The notes beneath the pieces are model-generated. The model was not told the DNA's origin and did no database searches. It saw nothing but the letters and a program-made list of their open reading frames with translations. 64,000 nt of DNA from Deltaproteobacteria bacterium (GTDB lineage: Bacteria > Myxococcota_A > Polyangia > Fen-1088), in contig JANRKS010000032.1 in NCBI GenBank assembly GCA_033763315.1, forward strand, positions 591,589 to 655,588, read 5' to 3'. The translations under genes were made by a program, and so were the position numbers. Positions 4,930 to 61,179 of the stretch are shown in pieces. Each line of letters opens with the position of its first letter. The first letter of the stretch is position 1.

Positions 4930-6309
4930 CTAATTGGGCTCTTGTATCTGCACACCTTGCAAGGGTCCGCACATGGCAAGGCCGCCAAAACCTGCGGCGC
5001 GCACGCCCATGATGTTTAGGAGCGTGCAGCCCAAGCGGTGATGGGGTTGAGGTCCGGCGTCAATCAGCTGTCCGCGTGTTTTCATCCGTCCACGTGCGCC
5101 GCCCAACATCACCACAGGGATGTCGCTCATCCCGTGGGGCCCGGTGGCAAGCTCATTGCCCCAGACGATCAGCGAATTGTCCAAGGCCGTGCGTCCGTCT
5201 GTGGAAGGAAACGCCAATAGGCGTTCACCAAGGTCGGCAATCAAGCTGGTGTACCACTTCTTGATTTCGGTGTTGATGCGTTCGATCTCCGGATCGCCTT
5301 GGTCTTGGTGGGCCACGAAGTCATGCGCATCTGATGGCATGCCGGGGATCTTCAACCAATCGTAGTGAAAGTGCTCACCGCCGCGACCGAACTGAAACGA
5401 CAACACGCCCACCATATTGCAGGCAACCGTGTTGGCGATGAATTCGATGAACAGGCGGCACAGAATTTCGGCGTTGGCTTCGTTGCCTTGGCCAAAACTT
5501 GGCACGCCCCGTTGCGCAGGTTGCGCCTTGGCACACGCAGCTGCTCGTGGCGGCAAGGCGGACGTCAGCCGGCGCTCGAAGTCGCGCACGGCCGTGGCGT
5601 GGAGCTGCACCTTCGCGCGCTCTTGGGGGCCCAGCCGGTTTTCAAGCAGCCTCAGATCATCAGCCACGCTGTCGAGGATCGAACGCTTCTGTGCCAGGCG
5701 ACGCTTGGCACTTTCAGGATCGGGCGGCGCGGCCTTAGACGCACCAAACACTGTTTCATACAGCCTGTAGATGTCGAGCTCACACGGTGCCTGTTGCATG
5801 CGTCCCGTGGCGGAAAACGAAATGCGCCCGGCGTTGATCGCTTTGTAATTCACAGCATGCACGCCGCAGTGAATGTGGCGAAGGCTGCCGGCACCGGAAG
5901 GCACTTCATTGGCGATGCGTTGATCCAACGAGATGCCGCCGCCGAACGAGCCGCCCGGGCCCAACACGCTGTCAAAGCCCGAGTAAAGGCCATGAAAGCC
6001 GCGGTCGTGTTCATTGCCACTGGGCGATTTGATCGCTTGATAGTTGATGCCTTTGATCAACGTGGTCTGCGCCGCCAAGCGCGGGTCGTTGAGCAACGCG
6101 CGCAGGATCGGTGAATCAAACGTTCCTGGGGCGGGCCAGAAATTCTTTTGGTTGGTGCCATTGGTTTGCATCAACAACACCAAAGCCGGTGGTCCTTGCG
6201 CTTCCGCTTCGCTAGCGAACGCGCGGCGCAGAAACATGGGAGTGGTCAAAGTGAGACCTGCGGCCTTCAGCAGGTGGCGCCGAGTGAAAAGCCGCGAGGA
6301 CGGAGTCAT
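4930..6309 (-). CDS. DUF1552 family protein, Tat-exported
   Basis: TRRHLLKAAG Tat signal; SLDQRIA, SILDSV, LDNSLIVWGNE, H...IPVVMLGGA; coupled to the DUF1592-family gene. Confidence 0.85.
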   Translation of the reverse strand: MTPSSRLFTRRHLLKAAGLTLTTPMFLRRAFASEAEAQGPPALVLLMQTNGTNQKNFWPAPGTFDSPILRALLNDPRLAAQTTLIKGINYQAIKSPSGNEHDRGFHGLYSGFDSVLGPGGSFGGGISLDQRIANEVPSGAGSLRHIHCGVHAVNYKAINAGRISFSATGRMQQAPCELDIYRLYETVFGASKAAPPDPESAKRRLAQKRSILDSVADDLRLLENRLGPQERAKVQLHATAVRDFERRLTSALPPRAAACAKAQPAQRGVPSFGQGNEANAEILCRLFIEFIANTVACNMVGVLSFQFGRGGEHFHYDWLKIPGMPSDAHDFVAHQDQGDPEIERINTEIKKWYTSLIADLGERLLAFPSTDGRTALDNSLIVWGNELATGPHGMSDIPVVMLGGARGRMKTRGQLIDAGPQPHHRLGCTLLNIMGVRAAGFGGLAMCGPLQGVQIQEPN

Positions 6310-7955
6310 GGTCTTACTCGCCTCTCGAAGCTGGCGTGGCCCACGAAGGCCAAGAACAGTGAATCTATGCGATTGCCATGTTGTTCGAACGCTTGCTGTA
6401 GATCAGCGATCACGCATTGATCGGCATCTGTTGCCGGACGGCCAGCCGCAAAACGGAAGAACTGTTGCACGAAGCAGTCGCTCACGGCACGGCTGTGCGC
6501 CAGCTTCTCGGACAGCTGCGCCACGCCCACAAACGCGCCATCCACGTCCGTATCCAGCAACATGCCTTGTGCATCCACCGGCAGCTCATTTTCGGTTGTT
6601 CGGTGGCGCCCAAGGCCATCCATGTCTTCGAGTCCAAAGCCGATCGCATCAAACGCCGTGTGGCAGCCGGCACACCGTGGCTCTGAACGATGTTGTTCGT
6701 ATTTTTGCCGTGTCGTCCTTGCCTTGTCGGTGGCATCGATTGTTTGAGCGGCGATTTGCACGGCCAAGTCCGGCGGCGGGGAAGGCACCTGTTGGCACAG
6801 CAACTGGCGGCGCACCAGCAGGCCCCTTTCGATCGGTCCCGAGTGTTGATCCGCCGCGTGGTACGTGAGCCACGCGGGCAGTGACAAAACGCCGCGGCGA
6901 AACACGGGGGAAAGCACAGACCCATGTTCCGTCATTTGCAATTCATCGCCGTAGATGGAAAACAGAGCGGCGGGGATATGCTGGCTTGTGTCCGTGAACA
7001 GCGCCTGCAGTGTGGCGTCGGGTCCAAAACTGTGAGCTCGCACAAAAGCGTCTATCTCCGCTTGCATGGCTGTCGCCACTTCAGCTGAATACGCGGCGAA
7101 CGCGTCGCCGTTCTTGGGCGCCGTTGCCACATCGTCCATGTCCAACCAACCCAGGATCAGCCGCTGCGCCTGCGCGCGGCCGCGCGGCGTTTGCAGCAAT
7201 CGTTCAACTTGCATTTGCCTATGCTCGGGCAGGGCCAAGAGTCCCAAGGAGGCAACCGTGGTGAGCGTCTCGTCGGGTCGCGCGGCCGTGGTGAGCAACG
7301 CAATCTGGTTTGCCAGCTCGTTGTCCGTGAGCAAGGATGGATCCAGCGTTGGCGTTACGTGGCCAAGTTCAGTGCTGTAGAGCGTGCCCGGCGCTTGCAG
7401 AACGTATTCGATCACCAGCCGAAGCGCGGTGGGTGTGTCGTCGGCCTGGTCCGAGAGCGTGGTCAGCGCAGCGCGCTCTGCGGCCGTGGGCGCGCGCCCG
7501 AAGGCGCGGTGGGCGAAGGCCATAGCAAAGCGATCCACGCACGCTTGGCGTGCTTCACCCAGCTCGCACACGGCATTCGGCAAGGCTTCGCGGCTCAACG
7601 TTTCGGCCACCACGGCAAATGCACCTTGCATCAGCGAGCCCACGCGCAACGCATCGTCTTGGTTATCAAAGCCGGCGATGTTGGGCTCCGCAGGCAGCAA
7701 GGTGGCCGCGCGTTGCCGCGCTTGGGTGCCCAACAAATCCTCAACCACGTTAAGATATTCGCGCTGCGACAACCGACGAACGCGCGGCGCCGGTGCTTGT
7801 GCGCATGTGAAGGATGGCGTCACCACAGCGTCAGCGGTCCCTGCGTCAACCACGGGCGGTGCAACCACTTTCGGCATGTGAGGGTGCTCGCAAGCGCCAA
7901 ACGCGAGCGCCGCCACGAGGAGCAGCGCTTGGCGATGCGCCCTCACGCTACACAT
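6306..7955 (-). CDS. DUF1587/1595/1592/1588/1585-type lipoprotein with a CxxCH motif
   Basis: Lipobox AFGAC; RRLSQREYLNVVEDLLG; RRGVLS; PIERGLLVRRQLLC; CAGCH; start overlaps murI stop (TGATG). Confidence 0.85.
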   Translation of the reverse strand: MCSVRAHRQALLLVAALAFGACEHPHMPKVVAPPVVDAGTADAVVTPSFTCAQAPAPRVRRLSQREYLNVVEDLLGTQARQRAATLLPAEPNIAGFDNQDDALRVGSLMQGAFAVVAETLSREALPNAVCELGEARQACVDRFAMAFAHRAFGRAPTAAERAALTTLSDQADDTPTALRLVIEYVLQAPGTLYSTELGHVTPTLDPSLLTDNELANQIALLTTAARPDETLTTVASLGLLALPEHRQMQVERLLQTPRGRAQAQRLILGWLDMDDVATAPKNGDAFAAYSAEVATAMQAEIDAFVRAHSFGPDATLQALFTDTSQHIPAALFSIYGDELQMTEHGSVLSPVFRRGVLSLPAWLTYHAADQHSGPIERGLLVRRQLLCQQVPSPPPDLAVQIAAQTIDATDKARTTRQKYEQHRSEPRCAGCHTAFDAIGFGLEDMDGLGRHRTTENELPVDAQGMLLDTDVDGAFVGVAQLSEKLAHSRAVSDCFVQQFFRFAAGRPATDADQCVIADLQQAFEQHGNRIDSLFLAFVGHASFERRVRP

Positions 7956-8806
7956 CAGCCAATCTCCACCTTTTGCACTTGAACCGGCTGATCCAAAATC
8001 CACGTGGCGTGTTCAGCGAACCATTCCGGATCGTCCGTTGTCACGAATTCACGGCGGCCCTGTCGGGTGAGGCGGCTTGTCATGTCCGGGTGACGCCGCA
8101 ACCAATCCGCAAGCCGGTCTGCCACAAGCGGTCCCTGCGCCAGCACTTCAACCGCTGGAGGCACAATCTGCCGGATGCCCGCGTAAAGCAGCGGGTAATG
8201 CGTACAACCCAACAGCACCCGGCTGGGCGCGGTGCTGGGATCAACGAACAGCGGGTCGAGGTATTGATGCAAGAAGTGTTGCGTGCCCGGGCTGTGCAGT
8301 TCACCTGCTTCCACCAGTGGCACCCACATCGGGCACGCTTGTTGAATCAAGCGCAGCCGCGGCGCCAGCTTCGCCAATTCCAGGCGATAAGAATCCGAAG
8401 CGATTGTGCCCTTCGTTCCCAGCACAGCCACCGTGCCTTCGGCAAGGGCAGGCGGCGTCACGCCGGGCACCGCTCCAGGCGGCAACCCCGCCAACGCTTC
8501 CGCCGAAGGGCGCACCACACCCAGCAAACGTTTGTCGGGATGATGCGTTGGCAAATAGCGCTGCTGCAAAGTGCGAAGCGCACGGGCCGAGGCTGTGTTG
8601 CATGCCAACACCACCAGGGGGCAGCCTGCAGCGAACATGTATTCCACCGCCTGCCGCGTGAACGCCGTCACCGTCTCGTGGCTGCGGATGCCATACGGCG
8701 AGCGCGCGCTATCACCCAGGTAAAGGTAGTCGTATTCCGGCAGACGCTGCAGCAATGCTTGCAACACCGTCAGCCCACCGAAGCCAGAGTCGAAAACGCC
8801 GATCAA
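7955..8806 (-). CDS. murI: Glutamate racemase
   Basis: IGVFDSGFGGLTV, ACNTAS, LGCTHYP. Confidence 0.96.
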   Translation of the reverse strand: MIGVFDSGFGGLTVLQALLQRLPEYDYLYLGDSARSPYGIRSHETVTAFTRQAVEYMFAAGCPLVVLACNTASARALRTLQQRYLPTHHPDKRLLGVVRPSAEALAGLPPGAVPGVTPPALAEGTVAVLGTKGTIASDSYRLELAKLAPRLRLIQQACPMWVPLVEAGELHSPGTQHFLHQYLDPLFVDPSTAPSRVLLGCTHYPLLYAGIRQIVPPAVEVLAQGPLVADRLADWLRRHPDMTSRLTRQGRREFVTTDDPEWFAEHATWILDQPVQVQKVEIG

Positions 8807-8964
8807 AACACCCCACTTTACACAGAGGCTGAGAAAAAAGGCTGACTGGGCTGCCGCTTCTCAACGCCAAGCCGCGCAGATGGTGCATCGCGGCTTGCGG
8901 CAGCTGCCCGAGCTTGTGGAAGGCCCGCCTGCTACAGTCGGCCCCCTCACTCCCCAAGATGAAT

Positions 8965-9282
8965 ATGCCCGCCGCCAACCCGAAGAAGCAGTCGTTAATG
9001 CCCGCTGGTCCTTTGCGCCGCAAACTGCGCGCCGCAGGTCACAACTTGCGCCCGATCGTTCACATCGGCAAAGACGGCACAAGCGCCGCCGTGCTCAAAC
9101 AGTTGGATCAGGCGTTGCTGGATCATGAACTTGTGAAGATCAAAATTGCCGGCGAGTGCCCGCAAGATCGCGGCGAGGTTGCTGCCACGCTGGCGGCCGA
9201 GCCCAATCTCGCTGTGGCGCAAGTGTTGGGTCGGACCATTCTTGCCTACCGCAAGCATCCCGAAAAACCTTCGTTCGAGTAG
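8965..9282 (+). CDS. yhbY: YhbY/CRM RNA-binding protein
   Basis: LRAAGHNLRPIVHIGKDG...HELVKIK...QVLGRTILAYR. Confidence 0.9.
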   Translation: MPAANPKKQSLMPAGPLRRKLRAAGHNLRPIVHIGKDGTSAAVLKQLDQALLDHELVKIKIAGECPQDRGEVAATLAAEPNLAVAQVLGRTILAYRKHPEKPSFE

Positions 9283-9290
9283 CCGCGGCC

Positions 9291-10505
9291 ATGACCAAAT
9301 CGCCCGAAGAGATGTTGCGCCGCAAGCGCAGCCTTCGCTCGTTGATGTTGATTCTGTTTCTGGGCGGCGTTGCGGTGCTCATCTTGTTGGTGCGCGCGCG
9401 CGTCCGTGGCCCCACCGACGCCGATGAATTTTTGGAAACCATCGCAGCATCGCGAGCCGACGTGGCGCTTGTGGCGTACACGGTAGGGGCCGACGGTTTG
9501 CCTGACGCATCCGATCCAATTGTGCAGCAAAACGCCGGCGAGAAATTTCCGTTGGCCGCTGTGGCGCGCATCCCTTTGTTGTTGGCTTACGCGGACGCCG
9601 TGGTGCAGGGGCGCGCGAAAGTGGATGAGCCTGTCTCTCTTGATGCGTGGGAACGCCATCACCTCAACGGTACGGACGGCGGCGCGCACGCCACGGCCTT
9701 GCGCGCGCTTGGTTTGCATGTAGATGCCGAAGGCTTCTCAGTGGCGCCCAAGCGTGACGTGTTGCTTGACGATGTTGTGGCGGCGATGATCCAGCACAAC
9801 GATAACTCGGCGGCGGATTTTGTTTTGGCCCGCTTGGGTGCGGTGGCGGCGGCGCAAGCGCTCTTAGATGCAGGCTTGACGAATCATGATCCCATCTTGC
9901 CCACCGCCGGCTTTTATTTGGCCGCCGCTGATGCCGATACGGAAGCGGGTGCCAAACGCGTGCTGGCACAGGGGCCGCAAGCCTTGTGGCAAACCGTGCA
10001 AGCTGCCGCGGATCGTTTTGCGAAAACCGAAGCGGGAACGCCCGCGCAACGGCAATGGTTAGACAAACACCCAACGCCTGGCACAGGCGTGCAAGCGCTG
10101 TGGGCCGATCAAGCGTTGACCCAAGGCGTGGCTTCACAATACGCCACGCTTATGGCGAAGATCGCCACGGGTCACTACGGCAGCGCCGCTGTCTTGCCGA
10201 TCGTGCAACGTCACTTGGCGTGGGCGATGAAGCTCGAAGGCAACGAGAAGTTGTTCAAAACATTCGGCAGCAAAGGTGGCACCTCCGTGAGCATCATGAC
10301 CGAAGCGATGTTCGCGGTGCCCAACCAAGGTGATTACGCGGGCAAAACGCGCGTGGTTGTGTTCTTAAACCGCCGGATGCCATCACTGCGTTGGTTCGCG
10401 CTCGTGCGCAGCTATGTGCACCAGCAATTCATCATGAAGCTGGCGCTCGAACGTGCCTTTGCCACGAAGGTGGCCGCGACGTTTGCCGCTCCTGCCGCGC
10501 CCTAA
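9291..10505 (+). CDS. Membrane-anchored class A beta-lactamase-like protein, apparently lacking the catalytic Ser
   Basis: N-terminal TM; FPLAAVARI at the SxxK position, HNDNSAAD at the SDN loop, GSKGGT at the KTG triad. Confidence 0.75.
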   Translation: MTKSPEEMLRRKRSLRSLMLILFLGGVAVLILLVRARVRGPTDADEFLETIAASRADVALVAYTVGADGLPDASDPIVQQNAGEKFPLAAVARIPLLLAYADAVVQGRAKVDEPVSLDAWERHHLNGTDGGAHATALRALGLHVDAEGFSVAPKRDVLLDDVVAAMIQHNDNSAADFVLARLGAVAAAQALLDAGLTNHDPILPTAGFYLAAADADTEAGAKRVLAQGPQALWQTVQAAADRFAKTEAGTPAQRQWLDKHPTPGTGVQALWADQALTQGVASQYATLMAKIATGHYGSAAVLPIVQRHLAWAMKLEGNEKLFKTFGSKGGTSVSIMTEAMFAVPNQGDYAGKTRVVVFLNRRMPSLRWFALVRSYVHQQFIMKLALERAFATKVAATFAAPAAP

Positions 10506-10897: not shown

Positions 10898-11533
10898 ATG
10901 AGCCAGAACGTGGCACCTGCACGTCTTCTTTACTGGCACATGAAAACTGGCGGCACACTGCGTCTGGTCAAGCCCGAGCCTCTCGAGGGCGCGGTAGGCG
11001 TGCCTTCGGTGCCGGCTCTGTACCAGCTCTACAGTCGCTACGTGGCCAGCATCGCCGCCAAACTGCTGGGCCGCGAAGATGAAGTGAAGGACGTTGTCCA
11101 GGACGTGTTCGTGGCGGCCATGGAACACTTGGACGAACTTCACAAGGCGGAGTCCGTCAAAGGTTGGCTCGCAGCCATCGCCGTCAACAAGGCCACCAGC
11201 CGGCTCCGGCGGCGCAAAGTGCGGGCCATGTTTGGCCTCGACAGCGGTGTTCACACACCGCCCGCGCATCCTGCCAGCCCGGAGCAGGCCGCCTATCTTG
11301 CGCAGCTCTATAAAGAGCTGGATCAGCTGCCCGTCAGCCACCGTGTGGCTTGGACACTGAGGTATGTGCAAGAAGAGCCGCTTGAAGAGGTGGCAAAGCT
11401 TTGTGCGTGTTCGTTGGCCACAGCCAAGCGTTGGATCGCTTCGGCGCAAGAGGCAATCGTGGCGCTTGAAGCCAAAGCGGGCGCTTCAGGAGGCGGTCCG
11501 CAAGCAAGACGACCAGGGGAGGGGAAGGCGTGA
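10898..11533 (+). CDS. ECF RNA polymerase sigma factor
   Basis: DVVQDVFV, GWLAAIAVN (region 2); LDQLP...LEEVAKLCACSLATAKRWI (region 4). Start at 10898 or 10940. Confidence 0.9.
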   Translation: MSQNVAPARLLYWHMKTGGTLRLVKPEPLEGAVGVPSVPALYQLYSRYVASIAAKLLGREDEVKDVVQDVFVAAMEHLDELHKAESVKGWLAAIAVNKATSRLRRRKVRAMFGLDSGVHTPPAHPASPEQAAYLAQLYKELDQLPVSHRVAWTLRYVQEEPLEEVAKLCACSLATAKRWIASAQEAIVALEAKAGASGGGPQARRPGEGKA

Positions 11534-12615
11534 TGAACGATATGATCAAGGCACTAAAAGATGTGGAACCAGCGTGGACGGGCGCTGAATATGATCGCTT
11601 GTTCGCGGACGCAAAGTCTCGCGTTTCGCAACGGCGGGCGCTTCGACGCCGCCTTCGCGTGGCCGGTGGTGCTTTGGGTGCTGTGGCGTTGGCGGTGAGT
11701 GTTTTGTCGCTGGTCAGGCGGCCCGCGCCAACCACCGTGGCCCAGATTGAGACGAACCAGATGGCAGCAAGCTCGCGCTTGTTGCGCTTCCCTGACGGGT
11801 CCACCGTTGAGTTGCTCAAGCCGCAAACCACACTCACGCCGCACGAAGTGAGCCTCACGCAAACGCATCTTGAATTGGCTTCGGGGTCGGCCCGCTTCGC
11901 CGTCACATCGCAATCCGTTCCGCACTTTCGCGTGGATGTGGGCACCGTTTCGGTGGAGGTGCTGGGCACCAAATTCGATCTCGAGCGGCAAGACGCGCGC
12001 ACACTTGTGACGGTTCAAGAAGGCCTCGTGTGGGTGACGTGGCCTGGCGGCGGGGCTGAAGTGCAGGCCGGCCAATCGGGGGTGTTCCCTCCCGTCACCG
12101 GGCGGCCTTCCGCGGCGGCAAGCGCGCCACCGGCCGCCCGCGTGAGCTCAAGTGATTGGCGGCGCCTGGCCCGCCGGCAAGACTTTCGTGCAGCCTTGAA
12201 CGTGCTCGAGCGCGAACAGCCGGTGGTGCGCGATGAGCCGGGCGATCTCTTGCTGGCCGCGGACGCCGCGCGCTTGGGTGGCAAACCCGCCAAAGCCGTG
12301 CCGTACCTGCAGGCGGTTGTAAAGCGGCACCCCGCGGACGCGCGCGCCTCTGCAGCGGCGTTCACGTTAGGGCGGCTCTACCTCGACGCACTCGGTGAGC
12401 CCCGCAAAGCGGCTGACTGCTTCGCCGACGCCCGCCGGTTGTCGCCGCACGGTCCTTTGGCCGAAGACGCTTTGTTTAGGCACGCGGAGGCTTTGGCGCG
12501 CGCGCAAGCATGGCCACAAGCCAACGCCGCGCTTGCCGATTTCGAGCGTCTGTTCCCGAACCCGCGCCGGGCTGAGGCGTTGCGCGCGCTCCTACGAAAC
12601 CAACACCGGCCTTAG
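11530..12615 (+). CDS. FecR-domain anti-sigma factor with C-terminal TPR-like repeats
   Basis: Single TM; FPDGSTVEL...LASGSARF...VEVLGTKF...VTVQEGLVWV; helical repeats AAFTLGRL, LAEDALFR; overlaps the sigma stop. Confidence 0.85.
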   Translation: MMNDMIKALKDVEPAWTGAEYDRLFADAKSRVSQRRALRRRLRVAGGALGAVALAVSVLSLVRRPAPTTVAQIETNQMAASSRLLRFPDGSTVELLKPQTTLTPHEVSLTQTHLELASGSARFAVTSQSVPHFRVDVGTVSVEVLGTKFDLERQDARTLVTVQEGLVWVTWPGGGAEVQAGQSGVFPPVTGRPSAAASAPPAARVSSSDWRRLARRQDFRAALNVLEREQPVVRDEPGDLLLAADAARLGGKPAKAVPYLQAVVKRHPADARASAAAFTLGRLYLDALGEPRKAADCFADARRLSPHGPLAEDALFRHAEALARAQAWPQANAALADFERLFPNPRRAEALRALLRNQHRP

Positions 12616-12619
12616 CTGT

Positions 12620-13576
12620 ATGTGGCATGGGCGGTTGGCTTGGACGTGCGCGCTGCTGGCGGTGCTTGCTGCCCCCGTGCATGCGGCACCGCCGGCGACC
12701 AAACCCGTGATCCGCATCGAGGCGTGCGCGGACCTCAACGACGCGGCTACGCGCAAGTTGCTTGCGCTTGAGTTGGGCAGCCTGGCCGAACGCTCCACCG
12801 TCAGCATTCATTGTGATGGCACCACGGTTGTTTTGAATGTGACGGCGGGCGAGCGGCAAGGCAGCCGTTCGATGAACTTGGCGGGAACAGACGCGCGCGC
12901 TTGGCCCCGCATTCTCGCGCTGTCCGCTGTGGAGCTGTTAACTGAGCCCATCATCACGCCAGAGGTGGCCGAGGTGGCGAAACCGAGCGCCTCGCAACCA
13001 GCCACAACCATTGCCGCGGTGGCACCCGCTCCTGTGCGCTCTTCGCCCGTGGGTGTGCAGATCGCGCTGTTTGCCGGCGCGTTGATTCGTGCGGTGCCTC
13101 GGCTGCAGACAAGCACGACGGGGCTACAACTTGGCGGCATTGGTGTGTGGCCTCAGCCGCTTGGGCCATGGCGCTTGGGTGCGCGCGTGGCGGGCGGTTT
13201 CGAGCATGGCCAGCGTTCACTGGATGCCGGCGATGGTGTGGCCAACGCGGTGTCGGCGCTTGTCGCGATGATGGCGTTGCGTCCTGGCCGATGGGCGCCT
13301 TGGGGCAGCGTTGGGCTGCGCGCCGGTCGCGCTTGGTTGCAAGGCGTGCCCACCGACATCGCCACGGGCTCTTCTTTTTCCGCGCCATGGCTTGGGCCTG
13401 AAGCGAGTCTCGGGCTGCAATGGCGCGGCGTGCATGGCCTTGGGGCCGGTGCGCATGTCGACGCGGGGTATGCCGCCGTCGCCGCCGTGGCGCGCGGCAT
13501 AGCGCCCACTTCGTCACGCTTTGGCTACGACGGCGCTTGGTTCGCGCTGAACATTTCGCTAGCCTTGCAGCTGTGA
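12620..13576 (+). CDS. Exported protein with putative C-terminal outer-membrane beta-barrel
   Basis: Signal peptide ending VHA; P/A-rich linker; alternating Gly/aromatic strands; ends WFALNISLALQL. Confidence 0.6.
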   Translation: MWHGRLAWTCALLAVLAAPVHAAPPATKPVIRIEACADLNDAATRKLLALELGSLAERSTVSIHCDGTTVVLNVTAGERQGSRSMNLAGTDARAWPRILALSAVELLTEPIITPEVAEVAKPSASQPATTIAAVAPAPVRSSPVGVQIALFAGALIRAVPRLQTSTTGLQLGGIGVWPQPLGPWRLGARVAGGFEHGQRSLDAGDGVANAVSALVAMMALRPGRWAPWGSVGLRAGRAWLQGVPTDIATGSSFSAPWLGPEASLGLQWRGVHGLGAGAHVDAGYAAVAAVARGIAPTSSRFGYDGAWFALNISLALQL

Positions 13577-15219
13577 CTCGCCCGCCTCAGACGTTCGTTG
13601 CGGTGATTGTGGCGGGCTTGTGCCTTGGGAGCGCCACCGGGTTTATTGGCTGTCGCGATGAACGACCGGTGCTGTCACTGCGCGACAGTGACGCGGGCGT
13701 GTTGGATGGATCTGCGAGCGGCGAACTCAGCGTCACCGTCGATGTGACTAAAGTTGTGGGCGAGATCAGTCCGTTGATCTACGGCTTTCACTTCCCCGAC
13801 AGCGCGCCATCAGACCTCGACTACGATGCCATTCGCCCCGCGTTGTTGCGCGTGCCGGGGTTTCGCCCCACCACCTACAACTGGGAAATCAACGCCAACA
13901 ACGGCGGCATCTCGTGGTGCAATGAAAACGGCGGTGCGATGTCTTTGGACGACACCTCGGCGGGCTTGATCGATGTGGGGGCCGCTGTTGCGACCAAGCT
14001 CGGCGCCACCTTGGTGATCACGGTGCCGATTGGAGATCATGTGGCGGCTGACACGAAAGGTGGCAGTGGTCCGCCCGGCTGCACGGGGGATGTGCGCAAG
14101 TCGCCAAACTACCTCACCACCCGTTTCATCGCGAATTTGCCCGCGGCCCCTTCACCCCTGGGGGCAGCGCCCAATTTGACTGACGCTCAGGTGTACCAAG
14201 ATCAGATGGTGGCGTGGATTAAGCGCAAGCATCCGGGGTTGCCCGTGGTGTTTAGTTTGGACCGCTATCCGGATCGCTGGTCTAGCTTTCATCCAGCCGT
14301 TTTCGCGCAGCCGCCGAGCTACGACGAGATCTGCCAACGCGGGATCAAGTTTGCGGCCGCGATCAAAAGCATCGCGAGCGATGCTGTGGTGACGGGACCC
14401 GATGTCTCTGGCTGGAGCGGCCTCGTCGCGGGGGGGGCCCTCACAGAGCGTGGCACCAAGGGGGATTTCTTTGAGCACTACTTGCGTTGCATGTGGGCAG
14501 CGCAGCCTGCGGCGCCTTTGCTTGATGTGTTCGAGTTTGCGTGGGTCAGCGAGGCCGTGGCGGGCAACGAGGCCGTCAGTGGCACGGGCACTTCTGTCGA
14601 TGTGATTGCCGCGCGCGTTCAGGCGCCCCGCTCGCTTTGGGATCCCACATACGTCGAAGACAGCGCGCCGGCGCAGAGTGAGGGTGCTTTGCGCCTGCTG
14701 CCTCGGTTGCAGGAGATCATCAAGAAGGTCGATCCGCAGGTTGGCATCTTTATTTCGGAGTGGAGTTTTGGCGGTACCGATCATGCCAGTGGCGCCGTGG
14801 CCGTGGCAGACGCGCTGGGCGTGATGGGCAAGTGGGGCGTGCGGATGGCTGCGTTGCGCTGGCATCAAGAGCCGCAGCGGTATTCGCTGGGGGCATTGCG
14901 CCTTTTCCGAAACTTCGACGGCAAAGGCGCTGCGTTCGGGTCCACGGCCGTGCTGGCGGATGCCACGCAGATTGCCACCGTCGGTGCCTACGCCAGCAAA
15001 GATAACCGGGGCTCGTACATCCTGCTCATCAACAAAACTCTCGAAGAACAAAACCTGGCGCTGACTGTGAGAGGTCTTGCCCAAAGCACGGTTTGGCAGG
15101 TGTTCCGGGTGGGAGCCGATTCAGCGAACCCGCGACGCGAGGCTGACTTTGATGGCAGCGCGAGGCGAATCGTTCTGCCTGCGCTGTCCGTCAGCTTGCT
15201 GTACGCCCCCCGCCCCTAG
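13573..15219 (+). CDS. Glycoside hydrolase family 44-like lipoprotein with degenerate active site
   Basis: GTG start overlapping upstream TGA; lipobox FIGC; ISPLIYG, TTYNWEINANN, APRSLWDPTYVEDS, ISEWSFGG, ADALG, FRNFDGKG. Confidence 0.85.
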   Translation: MTRPPQTFVAVIVAGLCLGSATGFIGCRDERPVLSLRDSDAGVLDGSASGELSVTVDVTKVVGEISPLIYGFHFPDSAPSDLDYDAIRPALLRVPGFRPTTYNWEINANNGGISWCNENGGAMSLDDTSAGLIDVGAAVATKLGATLVITVPIGDHVAADTKGGSGPPGCTGDVRKSPNYLTTRFIANLPAAPSPLGAAPNLTDAQVYQDQMVAWIKRKHPGLPVVFSLDRYPDRWSSFHPAVFAQPPSYDEICQRGIKFAAAIKSIASDAVVTGPDVSGWSGLVAGGALTERGTKGDFFEHYLRCMWAAQPAAPLLDVFEFAWVSEAVAGNEAVSGTGTSVDVIAARVQAPRSLWDPTYVEDSAPAQSEGALRLLPRLQEIIKKVDPQVGIFISEWSFGGTDHASGAVAVADALGVMGKWGVRMAALRWHQEPQRYSLGALRLFRNFDGKGAAFGSTAVLADATQIATVGAYASKDNRGSYILLINKTLEEQNLALTVRGLAQSTVWQVFRVGADSANPRREADFDGSARRIVLPALSVSLLYAPRP

Positions 15220-16601: not shown

Positions 16602-16851
16602 CGGTGCCGGCAGTGTGGCCTACTGGTGCCAACGCCGTCAACGCCTGCGTGGCAAATGACAAGGAAGCGGCACGTACGCTGCAGATCGTGGCCTGCTGGT
16701 TGTGGACAAGTGTCCGGACACGCGGCGGACACGGACAGGTTTTTCGCGCTTCGGGGCGGACAAACACGGCTCGTTCGCGCATTGTATTCGTCCGGTTCAA
16801 TGCTGGACCCGAAGGACCCACGTCCTTGCTTACTACCCTTGGGGCGCCAAC

Positions 16852-17322
16852 ATGACATTTTATGATCTAGAAGCAGAGTCCATCGACGGAAACGTTGTGC
16901 CGTTGGAGGTTTACCGCGGCAAAGTGGTTTTGGTCGTTAACACGGCCTCTCAATGTGGCTTTACCCCACAGTACGAGGGCCTTGAACAGCTGTGGAAGGA
17001 CTACAAAGAAAAAGACTTTGTGGTGTTGGCCTTTCCTTCTAACGATTTTGGCGCGCAGGAGCCAGGCACAGCGGAAGAGATCGAAGCCTTTTGCAAATCA
17101 CGCTACGGCGTCACTTTCCCTCTGTTCGCGAAGGTGAAGACGAAAGGCCAGGGGCAGTCGCCGATCTACAAGTTTCTCAACGCCAAGTACGGCGAGCCAC
17201 AGTGGAACTTTCACAAGTACCTCGTGGGCAAAGACGGTCAAGTCAAGCGGGCCTTTCCCGCAAAACTCGGTCCCGAGTCAATGCCGTTGCGGGCCGCTAT
17301 CGACGCCGCGTTGAAGGAGTAG
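16852..17322 (+). CDS. Glutathione peroxidase-family protein (Cys-type, cytoplasmic)
   Basis: VNTASQCGFTPQY, FPSNDFGAQEPG, WNFHKYLV. Confidence 0.93.
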   Translation: MTFYDLEAESIDGNVVPLEVYRGKVVLVVNTASQCGFTPQYEGLEQLWKDYKEKDFVVLAFPSNDFGAQEPGTAEEIEAFCKSRYGVTFPLFAKVKTKGQGQSPIYKFLNAKYGEPQWNFHKYLVGKDGQVKRAFPAKLGPESMPLRAAIDAALKE

Positions 17323-22086: not shown

Positions 22087-22626
22087 CTACATTCCGCCCA
22101 AAGCGGCGTTGATCGCGCCTCGCAATTCGTCGGATTCAGGGGTCACCTTGGATGGGAAGGCGTTGATTACTTGGCCGTCCTTGCCCACGAGGTACTTGTG
22201 AAAGTTCCACTTGGGCTCGCCATGTTTTGCGGCCAGGAACTTGTAAACGTCCGACTGCCCTTCGCCCTTGGTCTTCACTTTCGCGAACAACGGGAAGGTG
22301 ACGCCAAATTTGACGCTGCAGAATTTCTTAATCTCCGCCGCCGTGCCCGGCTCTTGCCCGCCAAAGTCGTTCGATGGGAAGCCCAGCAGAACAAAGTCTT
22401 TGCCTTTGTAGTCTTTCCACAGCTTTTCGAGTCCTGCGTACTGCGGCGTGAAGCCACACTCGGACGCGGTGTTGACCACCAAAACAACCTTGCCTTTGTA
22501 AGCCGATAGAGGCTGCTCGGCTCCGTCGATCGTTTCGGCCTTAAGAGAGAAAAAGTTCATGGGCTTTTCCTTTACCGGTTTTGCGGTTGACACCGCGAGT
22601 GACGCCACCATTGCTAAAATCAACAT
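22087..22626 (-). CDS. Glutathione peroxidase-family protein with probable signal peptide
   Basis: VNTASECGFTPQY, FPSNDFGGQEPG, WNFHKYLV; hydrophobic N-terminus MLILAMVASLAVSTA. Start uncertain. Confidence 0.9.
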   Translation of the reverse strand: MLILAMVASLAVSTAKPVKEKPMNFFSLKAETIDGAEQPLSAYKGKVVLVVNTASECGFTPQYAGLEKLWKDYKGKDFVLLGFPSNDFGGQEPGTAAEIKKFCSVKFGVTFPLFAKVKTKGEGQSDVYKFLAAKHGEPKWNFHKYLVGKDGQVINAFPSKVTPESDELRGAINAALGGM

Positions 22627-22760
22627 GTTCGTAAGATGCCGCAGGGCGGGCGTCTTGTCGCCGTTTCCGGCCAAGGTTGAGAGCTTTGTCACTACCCTAC
22701 GCCTACAACGCCCGTGTGCAGAGTTTTGCCTCGGTGCGGGATGAGTGATTCAATGCCGCC

Positions 22761-36675: not shown

Positions 36676-37616
36676 CACGCTGGCTCCTGGTTTGCCTTGC
36701 GCAAGCCCAGCCAAAGCACCACGGCGAACGTGATGCACATGAATACGGCGGGGGCCCATGTGGCGACTTTTAGAAGTCCAACGCGCTCAACATGTTGGTA
36801 GTGCGGCACGAGCCACACGGTTTTGCCTGCGCTTGCCATGTTGCTCACGGGCGAGGCACTGGCCAGATAGTCCCTGTCGCTGCGAACCAGCCGCTGCTCG
36901 CCCTCGGCAAGGTCTGACGCCAAACGGAAGGCGTTAAGGACAGAGGGGTTATCCGAAATCTTCGATACAACTTTATCGCCCACCACCACCGCACCCTGCG
37001 CGCCCAGTGCCTTTTCGATGCCAGTGAACGATGATTCACCAAGCTCAAAGCCCATCATGAATAGCGCTGCAACCTCATCGCCCGTGCGGATGGGTGCCAC
37101 ACCAAGCACGCGCACCTTGTTGGTGAACGTCCAGATATATGTGGAGGGGTTCTCCAGGGCGGCCTTGACCAGTGAAGATGAACCTAGATCCAGGTTGCGC
37201 ATTTCATCGGCCCCTACGACCGAGCGCACCTTGCCTCTGGTGTCGAGCACCGCCAGCACGCTTGCGTTCGATGATTTTTGCAAGTCCGTGAGCACGTCCG
37301 TGATGGTGGCCTCATCCAACTCAGGGGTGATGACGGTGGAACGGATGCGCGTGTCTTCCGCCAGCACGTTCACCTCTGACAGCAGATGCCGACGCTGTTG
37401 CTCAACAAACTGCGCCAACAGCGCGTTCGATTGCCTCAACGTGTCTGCATCCATTTGGTTGAGCAAAGACGTCACTTGGCGGTCCATCGCCCACGCCGCC
37501 AGACTGGTGAGCACCAATAGCGCCGTGACCGACGCGATGGCGGCCACTGGCTTGGGCCGCTCCACGCGTGTCACCGCTTGTGGCGATGAGTACATCTGAA
37601 ATTTGGCAACCGTCAT
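36675..37616 (-). CDS. Two-TM protein with Cache-like periplasmic domain and no cytoplasmic output domain
   Basis: TM, long helix LAEDTRIRS, AVLDTRGKV, VAPIR...MGFEL, second TM, then a ~8-aa tail. Confidence 0.6.
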   Translation of the reverse strand: MTVAKFQMYSSPQAVTRVERPKPVAAIASVTALLVLTSLAAWAMDRQVTSLLNQMDADTLRQSNALLAQFVEQQRRHLLSEVNVLAEDTRIRSTVITPELDEATITDVLTDLQKSSNASVLAVLDTRGKVRSVVGADEMRNLDLGSSSLVKAALENPSTYIWTFTNKVRVLGVAPIRTGDEVAALFMMGFELGESSFTGIEKALGAQGAVVVGDKVVSKISDNPSVLNAFRLASDLAEGEQRLVRSDRDYLASASPVSNMASAGKTVWLVPHYQHVERVGLLKVATWAPAVFMCITFAVVLWLGLRKANQEPA

Positions 37617-39472
37617 TCGGTCCTCCCGTGTTTGATAGATACGATTTGCTCGCCAGGCTTGATCTGGACTTGCTGTGAAAACACAACTTGATCGGCGCTC
37701 TCGACGCGCAAGCGATGTTCACCCACCGGCACCATGAAGGGCTGTGCGGCGCCCGGCATCTCAACGTCATCAACGTAGACCCGGGCCTCTGCAGGCAAAC
37801 CGCGAAGAACCACACGTCCGTCGGACTCAATCATCTTGAACACCTGCGGTGGCGATTTACCGGCCACCACGGAAAGGCGGCGATCTTCGGTCTTGTAACC
37901 GGCCTTATCGAGGTGAAGCGTGATCTGTCGACCAACCTTGAGGCCACGCAGAACTGCTGGCGTCGTTAGCCCGCTTGGTTCGCCATCCACAAAGATGATT
38001 GCACCCGAGGGATCGCTTTGCACTTCGATGGCGCCCATTGTGGTGGTCTGTTGCGTAGAACCCGCCCAACGAGGAGCTTCCTGTCGCAATGAAAACCCAA
38101 CGACGATGGCCACAACCGCCGCCGTGCCAGCGGCAATCATCCAAACCGGTGTGCGTGAACGTTTGGTGATGTGTGTGGCCCCGTGGCTTGCGGCACGGCT
38201 GACCTCTGTTGCTGGCAATGGTGTCTCCGCGGAGGCCCGCAACCCCGCGCGTGGAACCGCGGCGTCGGCTGCTCCCACTTGACCACCGCTGATTCGCTCA
38301 GTGGCAACATGGTCCGCGCTGGGGCGTTGTGTGGACCACAGAGCGCGCGGTTGTGCTGATAGGCTTCTGCCTGGAGCCGGCATGCCTGCGGCCGTCACCA
38401 GCCTTCGTACCTTTAGCTGCTCAAGCGCCGCTTCCACTTCTGTGCCTTGCGCGATCGCCTTTTTGAGGGCGGCGCGGTTTGGCTCAAACAGCGACTCCAT
38501 CCACAAGCCGATGCTTTTCGAGGTAGGCCGTTGTTGCCTTTGTACCAAGAACGCGTCGAGGGCTTCTGAGAGCTCGTGCGCGCTTTGAAAGCGCGCGCGT
38601 GGATCGCGGCTTAAGGCCCGCATCGTGATCGCGTCAAGATCGCGAGGCACATCGGGCCTCAAAGTGCTGGGGGCCGCGATTGTTTGCGACCGTACGGCGT
38701 CCATGGTTTGTGCGTCGTTTGGTTTCGCGAACAAGCTGCGGTTTGTGAGTGCCTCCCACAGCACGATGCCAAGGCTGAAGATGTCGGTGCGCCGATCGAC
38801 GTCGCCGCCGGTGATTTGCTCTGGCGCGCAATAGGCGTACTTGCCTTTGAACACCCCAGGGCTGGTTTGGGTGCTGCCTGGCGCGTTTTTCACAATGCCA
38901 AAGTCAAGCAGCTTGACCATCCCGTAATAGGTCACGAAGATGTTCGAAGGGTTGACGTCGCGGTGAACCAACCCTACGGGCTTGCCCGAGGGTTCACGGA
39001 TGTCGTGAGCGTAATGAAGGCCATTGGCGCTTTGCTGCGTGAGAGCCACAGCGATCTCCACCGTCATGGGTTCGCTGCGTTGACACGCTAAAAGAATCGC
39101 GGCCAGATCTTCGCCTGGCAAATACTCCATGCTGATGAAGTAAGAGCCATCGGCTTCACCCAACTCGTAAGTTGCGACGATGTTCGGGTGCTCTAAGCGC
39201 GCCGCCATACGTGCTTCATTGAGGAACATGTCTTCAAACTGCGGGCTATTGGCGAGGTGCGGAAGAATTCGCTTAACGGCCACGATCTTGGAGAAGCCCT
39301 GGATGCCTTGTTGTTCTGCAACGAACAACTGTCCCATGCCTCCTTGTCCAAGCAATCCGCGCAGTCGGTAGCGACCAAACGCTTCGCCTTGTCCTTGGCT
39401 CTTGAAAGCTTCCACTTCACAAAGTCGTTTCGGCCAATCGCGAGATGACTTAAGAGAAAAGATCACAAACAC
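37613..39472 (-). CDS. Membrane Ser/Thr protein kinase with PEGA domains
   Basis: GQGGMG, AVKRI, HRDVNPSN, DFG, YCAPE, DIFSLG; TM; SDPSGAIIFVDG. Start may be GTG ~39416. Confidence 0.93.
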   Translation of the reverse strand: MFVIFSLKSSRDWPKRLCEVEAFKSQGQGEAFGRYRLRGLLGQGGMGQLFVAEQQGIQGFSKIVAVKRILPHLANSPQFEDMFLNEARMAARLEHPNIVATYELGEADGSYFISMEYLPGEDLAAILLACQRSEPMTVEIAVALTQQSANGLHYAHDIREPSGKPVGLVHRDVNPSNIFVTYYGMVKLLDFGIVKNAPGSTQTSPGVFKGKYAYCAPEQITGGDVDRRTDIFSLGIVLWEALTNRSLFAKPNDAQTMDAVRSQTIAAPSTLRPDVPRDLDAITMRALSRDPRARFQSAHELSEALDAFLVQRQQRPTSKSIGLWMESLFEPNRAALKKAIAQGTEVEAALEQLKVRRLVTAAGMPAPGRSLSAQPRALWSTQRPSADHVATERISGGQVGAADAAVPRAGLRASAETPLPATEVSRAASHGATHITKRSRTPVWMIAAGTAAVVAIVVGFSLRQEAPRWAGSTQQTTTMGAIEVQSDPSGAIIFVDGEPSGLTTPAVLRGLKVGRQITLHLDKAGYKTEDRRLSVVAGKSPPQVFKMIESDGRVVLRGLPAEARVYVDDVEMPGAAQPFMVPVGEHRLRVESADQVVFSQQVQIKPGEQIVSIKHGRTE

Positions 39473-42910: not shown

Positions 42911-43241
42911 GTTCTTGTGTTGGTTCTGCGTGTGTTTGGTTGATCCCGCGGTGCGCGCGTGTGCCGCGGTTGTTGAGATCTGTGCGGCCATCTTACGTGC
43001 GTCGTACATGTCTGAGGTTTTATTGGGTCATTTTTTGTCTGGGCCTGGATTTATGCGTTTTTCGCGGGAAAACTTGAAATCCGTGAGCCGGGCGAATAGC
43101 GATCGCAGTTTTGATCTGCGATCCAAGATCGAAACGGTCACTTTGCTTTTGCAGCTTTTTTGTTCTGTCACTCAATGGCTCTGTGCAATCCGACGACACT
43201 TGCGGGGCACCGAGAATTGGTCACGGTGAATGGAGGAGATC

Positions 43242-44600: not shown

Positions 44601-44707
44601 ACGGTTGCAATGGATGCACCGACCCGTGCATCAAGAAGAAGGGGCGCTGTTCGGCGCCACTTCTTCTCTTTCTAGGTGGGTCATGTCCCAAACAGCAAGG
44701 AGATCAA

Positions 44708-48621: not shown

Positions 48622-48769
48622 TTCTGCCCCTAACAGTTGACGATCGTCCAAGCGCGATGAGTCAGATACGGAACTTCGTTTGCGGCACGACGTTCCATCG
48701 GGCGGCGCCCCGAAGCAAATTCAAAAAGAAGCTTCCCATCGCGGTTCTGCTTTCGCACAATGCGATGAC

Positions 48770-50545: not shown

Positions 50546-51153
50546 GTTCGAAATCGATTCGCCCGCTTCGTCGCGATCTAGGCGCCGTGGCCTTGGTGGC
50601 GGCTGGCCTTCCCCTGGTGCGGATTCGTAAGCTCCACGCAGCGGAAGCTCCCACCGCTGGTGCCAGAGCAGGTTTTTTCTCACCACACCAATTGTTAACG
50701 GTTGAACACCTGGCGGAGCAGATCATTCCGCAGGATGAACATTCGCCCGGTGCGCGTGAAGCCGAAGCCGCGCAAACGATTGATCTCTATTTGTTGGATC
50801 TAAACCCACGCAACTCCGATCACGTCAAAAGACGTGCTTTGTGGAAGCGAGGACTCGTCCACATTGATAAAGATGCCAACGCGCGCTTTGCCAAGCCGTT
50901 TGTAAAGCTGAAAGCAGACGATCAGTATGCGTTGCTAAGCACGTGGGCTGACACGCCAACCACTGATCCCTTGCGCTCGGCTTTCTTCGCGGAACTCAAA
51001 GCGCGCGTGGCTTGGGCCTACTACACATCTGCCGTGGGAATTCACCAAGACATGGGATATCTGGGAAACACGTACTCCTCCGACTTTGAGGGTGAGGCAT
51101 TGGGCCCACCCCTTGGGATCTTGTTCAAACAGATGAAGGACGAAGCGCCCTGA
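50542..51153 (+). CDS. Gluconate-2-dehydrogenase subunit 3-like Tat protein
   Basis: LRRDL Tat-like signal; QIIPQDEHSPGA; YYTSAVG. Confidence 0.82.
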   Translation: MSSKSIRPLRRDLGAVALVAAGLPLVRIRKLHAAEAPTAGARAGFFSPHQLLTVEHLAEQIIPQDEHSPGAREAEAAQTIDLYLLDLNPRNSDHVKRRALWKRGLVHIDKDANARFAKPFVKLKADDQYALLSTWADTPTTDPLRSAFFAELKARVAWAYYTSAVGIHQDMGYLGNTYSSDFEGEALGPPLGILFKQMKDEAP

Positions 51154-54848: not shown

Positions 54849-54952
54849 GGTTTGCCCCCGACAAGGGGGGCTATACGGGGGCGTCTCACAAAGTTTACAG
54901 TCCGCCACTTGTAACAGGCAGTGACTTTGGGCAAGCTGCGCGGCGAACATCA

Positions 54953-58069: not shown

Positions 58070-58098
58070 CCTCGCAGCACATACGAATTGGCTCAGTC

Positions 58099-59157: not shown

Positions 59158-59358
59158 CCAAAGCGCTGAATTCGACTCTGCTTCAAGGTCTGGTGTCTAG
59201 CCTGCGCATTGTCGAAGCTGCTCACCATAGCCGCAGCCCCGATACTGTATGGGATGAGGCCTTCGAAAGCTGAGATGCGCCAAAGGGTGCGCATATCGTT
59301 CACGCTGCGAAAACAATTTGGCCGGATTTGCGTTGCGGTGACGTCATGACCTTGTCAT

Positions 59359-61167: not shown

Positions 61168-61179
61168 GGAGTCGCCACG

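Follow-up and report, generated by a model that had tools for sequence, protein, structure and literature searches.

A conserved four-gene Polyangia operon pairing an ECF sigma factor and a FecR-TPR anti-sigma factor with a predicted small outer-membrane barrel protein and a putative GH44-fold lipoprotein lacking the catalytic acid/base

Background

Myxobacteria carry dozens of sigma factors with extracytoplasmic function (ECF), a minority of them with known signals. One catalogued group, ECF267, occurs in Polyangia (Sorangium and Chondromyces) and is described as having, at position +1, a fusion of a FecR domain and tetratricopeptide repeats (TPR) with one transmembrane (TM) helix, no FecA-like or other TonB-dependent receptor, and one to three Ser/Thr kinases proposed nearby (Casas-Pastor et al. 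2021, PMC7826278). Here we describe an operon of this general layout from a 64,000 nt stretch of Deltaproteobacteria bacterium DNA (contig JANRKS010000032.1, positions 591,589 to 655,588, forward strand; hereafter 'the window'), in which an ECF sigma factor and a FecR-TPR anti-sigma factor are encoded alongside a predicted outer-membrane protein (ORF3) and a putative lipoprotein with the fold of glycoside hydrolase family 44 (GH44) that has lost its catalytic acid/base. It is a conserved operon of a small Polyangia (Myxococcota) clade, plausibly one of envelope signalling.

Three further sets of described proteins provide points of comparison. In Fec-type cell-surface signalling, a Gly-Thr bond self-cleaves in the anti-sigma factors FecR (G181-T182) and FoxR (G191-T192) before processing by Prc/RseP (PMC9249621). 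The SigI6/RsgI6 pair of Clostridium thermocellum is described as possessing a GH10 sensing module whose activity is very low but which continues to bind xylan and cellulose (PMC4711584). Within GH44 itself, Glu-187 in the NEP motif of the enzyme PpXG44 is reported to be the proton donor and Glu-358 the nucleophile (Ariza et al. 2011, PMC3190823), and EpsB of Myxococcus xanthus (MXAN_7450), to which NCBIfam NF041873 gives the name 'GH44 family glycoside hydrolase EpsB', is reported to be tied to production of the cell's own exopolysaccharide.

Organisation of the operon

The operon, on the forward strand at positions 10898-15219 of the window, consists of four open reading frames (ORFs):

10898..11533, forward strand: ECF sigma factor gene; Pfam Sigma70_r2 (4e-14) and Sigma70_r4_2 (4e-6)
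11530..12615, forward strand: anti-sigma factor gene; Pfam FecR (1e-15) and TPR_6 (2e-8)
12620..13576, forward strand: ORF3, 318 aa, predicted outer-membrane protein of an unannotated family; AlphaFold2 (AF2) and Foldseek
13573..15219, forward strand: gene for the putative GH44-fold lipoprotein, 548 aa; Pfam PF12891 (Glyco_hydro_44; 9e-22)

An earlier first-pass annotation, made from the sequence alone, had described four tightly coupled genes joined by two overlaps and one 4 nt gap, and both the ORFs and the junction sequences bear this out, the overlaps each being a 4 nt GTGA. The sigma factor stop codon, TGA (11531-11533), lies inside GTGATG, such that the anti-sigma gene starts at either GTG 11530 or ATG 11533. 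The anti-sigma stop codon, TAG (12613-12615), is followed by the four nucleotides CTGT and then by ATG 12620 of ORF3, the TGA of which (13574-13576) overlaps the GTG at 13573 that begins the GH44-like gene. Consensus scans gave no regulatory signal, returning no sigma-70-like promoters and eight terminator-like sites against 7.6 expected. The 2 kb bin with the highest G+C content in the window (12001-14000; 0.665, compared with 0.555-0.632 elsewhere) takes in ORF3 together with the last part of the anti-sigma gene and the beginning of the GH44-like gene, and may only reflect the Ala/Gly/Pro-rich composition of ORF3.

A GH44-fold lipoprotein without the catalytic acid/base

When the product of the fourth gene was compared with the PDB using phmmer, the best matches were 3ik2 (3e-55, residues 104-578 of the long ORF), 2ykk (8e-53) and 2eex (8e-52). 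Together the PDB matches span residues 96-578 of the long ORF, corresponding to a (beta/alpha)8 barrel and a beta-sandwich, and by sequence and fold homology the protein belongs to GH44 (PF12891, clan GH-A). The only named GH44 model in NCBIfam is that of EpsB, against which the protein scores 132 bits relative to a cutoff of 1250, so it is not an orthologue of EpsB; the two are alike in that EpsB is a myxococcotal GH44-fold protein, one reported to be linked to the cell's own polysaccharide rather than to plant biomass. The segments that bear on localisation and catalysis are as follows:

13651..13653, forward strand: putative lipid-modified Cys27 (FIGC), with a hydrophobic signal sequence upstream; motif CRDE
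13855..13866, forward strand: PGFR
14254..14280, forward strand: SLDRYPDRW
14263..14268, forward strand: Arg231-Tyr232, at the acid/base position, where the NEP motif of clan GH-A has Asn-Glu
14539..14550, forward strand: AWVS
14752..14775, forward strand: ISEWSFGG
14758..14760, forward strand: Glu396 (ISEW), the retained nucleophile position, matching the nucleophile Glu in the alignments with 3ik2 and 2ykk

In alignments with the solved enzymes, 'fsldrypdrws' is placed against 'ysldnepslwps' and 'yaldnepalws', the Asn being replaced by Arg and the acid/base Glu by Tyr; 'isewsfgg' is placed against 'fseynygg', the nucleophile Glu being retained; and PGFR and AWVS align with GGNR and HWYP respectively. 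The first-pass annotation had read the same pattern, with LDRYPDRW for LDNEPxLW, the nucleophile kept and the other two motifs degraded, and the alignments with 3ik2, 2ykk and 2eex agree with it. The protein thus shares a full-length fold match and the nucleophile with the endo-(xylo)glucanases PpXG44 (2ykk), CtCel44A (2e0p/2eex) and CaXG44 (3ik2), but differs from them in that the acid/base Glu, the adjacent Asn and most glucan-binding residues are replaced.

Two clades of GH44 relatives lacking the acid/base residue

A word-indexed protein search identified 825 relatives at E<=1e-5, of which the best 120 were aligned and used to construct a FastTree phylogeny. The acid/base column of these 120 sequences contains Glu in 102, Gln in 12, Tyr in four, Met in one and Ile in one, and the nucleophile is Glu in 118. 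The sequences with Tyr or Met are exactly the five closest, the query included (53-100% identity): four relatives are 53-73% identical to the query, and all others aligned are at most 42% identical. The five form a clade with support of 1.0 on a branch of length 0.52, compared to a median internal branch of 0.074. All have DR[Y/M]P, PGFR, [A/S/H]W[V/G/S]S and the nucleophile Glu, and the position of the NEP Asn is Arg in each, whereas it is Asn in 114 of the 115 sequences outside the clade. The single Met belongs to the protein encoded at a second locus, L001, in a Polyangia metagenome-assembled genome (MAG). C27, R28, D29 and E30 are invariant across the clade, and a lipobox expression matched four of the five, which is consistent with a putative lipoprotein modified at Cys27.

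The loss of the acid/base is therefore clade-wide and ancient, in a protein that is constrained rather than decaying. The idea that the gene is a decaying pseudogene, or that the sequence is in error, would account for a lost catalytic residue and for nothing further. It is effectively refuted by the open, full-length frame of five independent sequences carrying the same substitutions at a mean column identity of 72%, as well as by the retention of the operon at L001; the one-off decay or sequencing error that the first-pass annotation had raised against its own proposal can be dismissed.

P0027, which the tree places as sister to the five-member clade with support of 1.0, has changes at both catalytic positions, the motifs reading LDRIPQ and FSDW with Asp at the nucleophile. 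Its N-terminus is lipoprotein-like (...APACETARDVLV) and resembles the CRDExxVL motif of the clade. A second clade, also with support of 1.0 and separate from the first, comprises 12 of the 120 sequences (P0034, P0049, P0057, P0072, P0082-P0084, P0087, P0094, P0100, P0115 and P0117) with Gln at the acid/base position in the motif LDNQP; GGN(R), HWY and the nucleophile are kept. In several of these sequences a lipoprotein-like N-terminus precedes a Gly/Ser-rich linker. As the DR[Y/M]P and DNQP clades are separate, the acid/base has been lost at least twice among these relatives, and the second group may likewise consist of naturally occurring GH44s that are inactive or work by an altered mechanism.

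Remodelling of the glucan-binding cleft

The roles of the PpXG44 residues at the -1 subsite (Asn-48, Asp-65, Asn-186, Tyr-286 and Trp-391) and elsewhere in the glucan-binding cleft were taken as described in PMC3190823. Their equivalents in the five-member clade are:

Asn-48: Phe in the clade (F97)
Asp-65: Ser in the clade (S114)
Asn-186: Arg in the clade (R231)
Glu-187: Tyr or Met in the clade
Gln-243: Gly in the clade
Tyr-286: Val, Gly or Ser in the clade (position 325)
Arg-295: Ala, Ser, Pro or Val in the clade
Trp-326: Ala, Pro or Ser in the clade
Trp-330: Ser in the window protein
Trp-391: Arg in the clade (R429), with a Trp one residue further on
Asp-71/Tyr-73 segment: deleted in the clade
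Arg-49, Trp-66 (Trp115 here), YNWE, RSLWD and Glu-358: retained in the clade

These changes stand within a wider pattern. Of 134 columns at least 90% conserved in the 115 non-clade sequences, 77 are kept in all five clade members, 22 are changed in all five and 35 are mixed. Conversely, 42 residues are invariant in the clade and rare (<10%) elsewhere, including Arg231, Arg424, Arg429, Glu118, Glu333, Glu370 and Glu433. The glucan cleft has been remodelled, not just disarmed, which we interpret as neofunctionalisation. It is very unlikely that the protein carries out classical retaining hydrolysis, and there is no support for a retained specificity for glucan or xyloglucan; an anionic ligand is hinted at by the two arginines that have appeared at -1 subsite positions.

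The pattern bears directly on the first-pass annotation, in which the lipoprotein was a non-hydrolytic receptor for beta-glucan or xyloglucan at the cell surface that relayed its signal via the small barrel protein to the TPR domain of the anti-sigma factor. The GH44 fold, Trp115, YNWE, the nucleophile Glu, the lipoprotein signal and the position of the barrel gene between those of the anti-sigma factor and the lipoprotein would all suit such a receptor. The cleft lends no support to the ligand it requires: the equivalents of Asn-48, Asp-65, Asn-186, Gln-243, Tyr-286, Arg-295, Trp-326, Trp-330 and Trp-391 are replaced, the residues lining the +2 to +5 and -1 glucan subsites being lost in all five proteins, and the -4 segment (Asp-71/Tyr-73) is deleted. 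Nor does anything point to a location at the cell surface. The proposal in full is very improbable, and its beta-glucan component is not supported.

A different possibility is that the protein is still an enzyme, using the nucleophile Glu with a non-canonical acid/base (another residue, a carboxylate of the substrate or an exogenous group) for glycan processing under control of the sigma factor; it might, for instance, be a transglycosylase acting on an anionic or activated substrate. The retention of Glu396, YNWE and RSLWD in all five sequences is in keeping with this, and the new invariant arginines at the -1 subsite (Arg231 and Arg429) and glutamates (Glu118, Glu333, Glu370 and Glu433) resemble re-tooling more than simple loss. 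The LDNQP clade also offers a parallel, since the Glu to Gln change at the acid/base position is the substitution found in plant myrosinases, which belong to clan GH-A. Nevertheless, the acid/base position is Tyr in four members and Met in one, implying no conserved chemistry there; the -1 residues that hold the sugar (the equivalents of Asn-186, Tyr-286, Asn-48, Asp-65 and Trp-391) are all replaced; and the sister protein P0027 has lost the nucleophile too. A surviving enzymatic function is therefore considered improbable.

Conservation of the four-gene unit

A genome scan with the GH44-like protein found nine loci, of which only L001 (JBBSJE010000058.1) encodes a member of the five-sequence clade. 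It carries the same four genes in the same order:

5297-5869: sigma factor, 70% identical to the window protein
5869-6987: FecR-TPR anti-sigma factor, 57% identical
6991-7944: ORF3-like protein, 37% identical
7941-9548: GH44-like protein, 54% identical

The junctions at L001 correspond in type to those of the window, being a TAATG overlap, a 3 nt gap and a GTGA overlap. The flanking genes differ between the two loci, with a beta-lactamase-like gene upstream and PPK2 downstream in the window, compared with DUF1552 upstream and a PCMT methyltransferase downstream at L001. Among 10 sequences searched with hidden Markov models (HMMs) of ORF3 and the FecR-TPR protein, matches were found in the window and L001 only; the two components co-occur in both and are absent from the other eight. 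As a control, the scan was extended to five of the other GH44 loci, L002-L005 and L007 (but not L006, L008 and L009), none of which has an ECF or FecR gene; the two Polyangiaceae loci have GH3, GH43 and GH30 neighbours. The first-pass annotation had asked whether GH44 proteins linked to ECF-FecR genes systematically lack the NEP Glu: it is absent from all five clade members, those of the window and L001 included, and canonical NEP-bearing GH44 genes are not beside ECF/FecR genes (0/5). The identity tiers of homologues also agree for three of the component proteins, at 73-76%, then approximately 59-60% (43-44% for ORF3), then L001; such agreement fits, without proving, the presence of all components in the same genomes.

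Two candidates for additional shared features were rejected. A common promoter upstream of the sigma genes in the window and L001 was sought, and a single shared 9-mer was found, with no match of the GGAAC-N-CGT type and an unconvincing alignment. A pair of DUF1592/DUF1588-type and DUF1552 genes also lies near both operons (window 4930-8003, reverse strand; L001 2197-5285, forward strand), that at L001 stopping 12 nt ahead of the sigma gene; with an identity of just 30% between the DUF1592 proteins, these are paralogous pairs, and their adjacency to the module is probably coincidental.

The sigma factor and the FecR-TPR anti-sigma factor

The sigma factor scores 67.7 bits against the NCBIfam sigma70-ECF model (cutoff 42.9). 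It would be 211 aa long if translated from ATG 10898 and 197 aa long from ATG 10940, the latter probably being the true start because the L001 orthologue aligns only from M15.

The anti-sigma factor comprises a cytoplasmic N-terminus of approximately 42 aa containing a conserved VxPxW motif, a single TM helix at residues 43-61 (assigned by inspection), a periplasmic FecR domain (PF04773, residues 79-167; Pfam 1e-15) and a C-terminal CpoB/YbgF-like TPR domain. It matches the NCBIfam models tol_pal_ybgF (1e-7) and BamD (1e-5), in both cases below their cutoffs, and a profile search of the PDB returned 4m0n/4m0h, each a 'putative anti-sigma factor' (6e-16), and the TPR domain of CpoB (6g5s; 0.013). 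One dipeptide within the FecR domain is of particular relevance:

11965..11970, forward strand: Gly145-Thr146 of the anti-sigma factor (VLGTKF), located where FecR and FoxR have their self-cleavage dipeptide

Both residues are at least 90% conserved across 67 FecR-TPR homologues, and the family profile 'VlGTaF' aligns with VLGASF/VLGGSF of 4m0n/4m0h, which are solved FecR-like periplasmic domains. At the level of the motif, then, the protein carries a Gly-Thr dipeptide at the known self-cleavage position. The sequences of 4m0n and 4m0h differ solely at the residue aligned with the family Thr of VLGT (VLGASF versus VLGGSF); judging by this difference, the self-cleavage site may have been varied by engineering.

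Proteins of FecR-TPR architecture are common among the Myxococcota: they make up at least 138 clusters, whose source names include Polyangiaceae, Vitiosangium and Archangium. Neither TonB_dep_Rec, Plug nor STN was found among the 50 ORFs of the 64 kb window or the nine ORFs of the 12 kb L001 locus. The TonB-independent route envisaged in the first-pass annotation is accordingly upheld as regards the missing receptor, but not as regards its novelty, given that FecR-TPR proteins without a receptor are catalogued as ECF267. The resemblance to that group lies in the FecR-TPR anti-sigma factor at +1 of the ECF sigma factor, without a TonB-dependent receptor, and the related locus L001 is likewise labelled Polyangia. 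By contrast, the published description of ECF267 names no conserved outer-membrane protein or GH44-like gene, and the only Pkinase gene in the window (37613-39472, reverse strand) is approximately 22 kb away, with none at L001.

ORF3, a predicted small barrel with a tethered periplasmic domain

No sequence relative of ORF3 was found in Pfam, NCBIfam or the PDB. Its product can be divided into a signal peptide, an N-terminal domain, a Pro/Ala-rich linker and an eight-stranded beta-barrel, the two structured parts being:

12686..12955, forward strand: N-terminal domain, residues 23-112; AF2 model, with conserved Cys36, Cys65 and Glu105
13058..13573, forward strand: C-terminal eight-stranded beta-barrel, residues 147-318; AF2/DSSP strands and Foldseek

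The full-length AF2 model has a predicted local distance difference test (pLDDT) score of 67, with a disordered linker of approximately 35 residues (110-143) and eight strands between residues 147 and 317 as assigned by DSSP; blocks within the barrel have pLDDT values of 65-92. Foldseek matched the barrel to the TM domain of OmpA, OprF, Ail, OmpX, PagL and OmpW (E values of 6e-4 to 6e-3). ORF3 is thus predicted, from a signal peptide and eight antiparallel TM strands, to be an outer-membrane protein of the small eight-stranded type. Only two of 79 family members match PF13505 (OMP_b-brl), and the window protein matches no Pfam family. Barrels of eight strands are not known to have a lumen wide enough to relay a polypeptide or a ligand, and the likeness of the modelled barrel to OmpA, OmpX and Ail is a further argument against a surface receptor signalling through it.

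Outer-membrane barrels with an even number of strands generally have both termini in the periplasm, and for this reason the N-terminal domain is likely to be periplasmic, tethered under the outer membrane. Modelled alone from a 79-row alignment, it reached a pLDDT of 93.2 and a predicted template modelling score (pTM) of 0.83, with a beta-alpha-beta-beta-beta-alpha fold. Cys36, Cys65 and Glu105 are invariant in the 79 sequences, and the domain is predicted to bear a Cys36/Cys65 disulfide. The best Foldseek matches were HPF/YfiA-type proteins (TM score approximately 0.5), followed by PelC, the TolB N-domain and LptE. The candidate assignment of this domain as an STN-like signalling domain of a TonB transducer was rejected, as the confident model matched generic beta-alpha-beta-beta-beta-alpha proteins only, and no STN or TonB-box domain.

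An exhaustive profile search extended the ORF3 family to 533 representatives at E<=1e-3, of which 96 remain at E<=1e-10. Lengths range from 245 to 480 residues, mostly 290-360; the nearest clusters are labelled 'hypothetical' in the Atlas, and the commonest phylum is Myxococcota.

Proposed function

These observations lead us to a tentative reading, held at slightly less than even confidence, in which the lipoprotein is a non-hydrolytic binding protein that, with the tethered domain of ORF3, provides the periplasmic input to the TPR/FecR part of the anti-sigma factor, and FecR-type proteolysis frees the sigma factor. Having given up classical retaining hydrolysis, the lipoprotein would bind some ligand, which need not be a glucan and may be anionic. 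It would form, jointly with ORF3, the input module of the anti-sigma factor, the tethered N-domain, the lipoprotein or both touching the TPR domain, and a shift in the ligand or in the state of the envelope would set off regulated proteolysis of the anti-sigma factor and release of the sigma factor.

The scheme can be set beside several known systems. In the enterobacterial Rcs system, the lipoprotein RcsF, with OmpA/OmpC/OmpF and IgaA, reports the state of the envelope to an inner-membrane periplasmic sensor, RcsF threading through 16-stranded porins or contacting OmpA, and the system feeds a phosphorelay. The analogy is a loose one: an outer-membrane lipoprotein and an outer-membrane beta-barrel are likewise involved, but the families are unrelated and the Rcs output is not an ECF sigma factor. 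With Fec-type signalling, as described in PMC9249621, the operon shares the periplasmic FecR domain, the Gly-Thr dipeptide and an anti-sigma factor spanning the inner membrane, and by functional analogy the periplasmic domain displayed by ORF3 resembles the N-terminal signalling domain of the transducer. It differs in having no TonB-dependent transducer, a TPR domain at the C-terminus of the anti-sigma factor, an ORF3 N-domain that is not STN-like, a barrel of eight strands rather than 22, and a cytoplasmic anti-sigma portion about half the usual length of approximately 80-85 residues. RsgI6 provides a precedent in favour of the proposal, a glycoside hydrolase fold being reused there as the carbohydrate-binding input of an alternative sigma/anti-sigma pair. 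There, according to the published account, the hydrolase module is fused to a Gram-positive anti-sigma factor and its binding specificity is kept, whereas here the protein is a separate lipoprotein in a diderm, acts alongside another sigma family and has a remodelled cleft.

The main competing explanation is that ORF3 and the lipoprotein are outputs. The sigma/anti-sigma pair would sense something else, such as envelope stress, through the FecR/TPR region, and the other two proteins would be co-transcribed regulon members, for example envelope proteins with a structural or polysaccharide-binding role that are produced while the sigma factor is active. In agreement with this, ECF267-type pairs are described without a conserved third or fourth partner (PMC7826278), and M. 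xanthus EpsB illustrates that GH44-fold proteins can be envelope effectors. The FecR-TPR proteins and the ORF3 family, whose numbers are given above, also far exceed the GH44-like clade, with its five members and the sister P0027, which means that the signalling core does not in general include the lipoprotein. Set against these points, stop/start overlaps conserved in two genomes whose proteins are only 37-70% identical suggest stoichiometric co-production, which is seen more often for complex subunits than for output genes, and a pseudoenzyme with a remodelled but constrained cleft suits a binding or regulatory role. We regard the output explanation as possible, though on the unlikely side.

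Several considerations weigh against the proposed input role. ECF operons often carry co-transcribed output genes, and membership of the operon therefore does not demonstrate a sensor role; sensor and co-transcribed output functions are indistinguishable from the present data. The four-gene context was read at the DNA level in one other genome only, L001. The cytoplasmic part of the anti-sigma factor is unusually short and its binding to the sigma factor is assumed, the match to ECF267 is one of architecture and description, and the new glutamates invariant in the clade could in principle supply a replacement acid/base. A prediction of the complex between anti-sigma residues 62-360, ORF3 residues 23-146 and GH44-like residues 27-548 scored 0.00 and was run without controls, and weighs neither for nor against binding.

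A broader extension of the input role, which we consider unlikely, is that the ORF3 family constitutes a general outer-membrane partner of FecR-TPR anti-sigma factors, its tethered domain replacing the signalling domain of the transducer and an interchangeable lipoprotein conferring specificity. Such an arrangement would amount to a TonB-independent trans-envelope route, in which the lipoprotein here would be a GH44 pseudoenzyme whose rebuilt cleft, with its two new arginines, would receive an anionic glycan, possibly the exopolysaccharide of the cell itself or of its prey.

Literature searches, as judged by titles and the beginnings of abstracts, found no description linking GH44 to an anti-sigma factor, the matches being cellulosome and genome surveys. 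ECF267 was encountered in the classification paper only, where the gene arrangement reported here is not described.

Other features of the window

Elsewhere in the window, genes for a GMC oxidoreductase, a gluconate 2-dehydrogenase subunit-3-like protein and a member of the 3-keto-disaccharide hydrolase family adjoin one another (48680-51905, forward strand), an arrangement resembling a 3-keto-glycoside route of sugar oxidation. At 54710-63756 (forward strand), a gene for a 1119 aa protein that contains three Big_7 Ig-like repeats precedes ORFs of 366, 602 and 858 aa, none of which has a Pfam match at E<=1e-5; this block probably encodes large uncharacterised secreted proteins. Two glutathione-peroxidase paralogues lie approximately 5 kb apart (16702-17322, forward strand; 22087-22692, reverse strand), separated by a Suv3-like helicase, a tRNA-editing-domain protein and a PAS/histidine-kinase/receiver hybrid. 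A gene for a di-haem cytochrome c peroxidase (CCP_MauG) is followed by one with a RoxA-like cytochrome c motif (43230-46111, forward strand).

Conclusions

The anatomy of the operon and its pseudoenzyme are solid, and its signalling role is plausible. New are the unannotated ORF3 family and the second clade of GH44 proteins without the acid/base (Glu to Gln). To our knowledge, no input mechanism has been proposed for the catalogued FecR-TPR anti-sigma factors that lack a TonB-dependent receptor, and the operon provides concrete input candidates, namely the periplasmic domain that a small barrel of the outer membrane carries on a tether, and the glycanase-derived lipoprotein. The occurrence of natural GH44 pseudoenzymes in two independent clades bears on the annotation of carbohydrate-active enzymes, which would count these proteins as cellulases or xyloglucanases. 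If the proposed input role is true, the principle of the 'disabled glycosidase as sensor', known from the RsgI proteins of clostridia, would extend to diderm bacteria.

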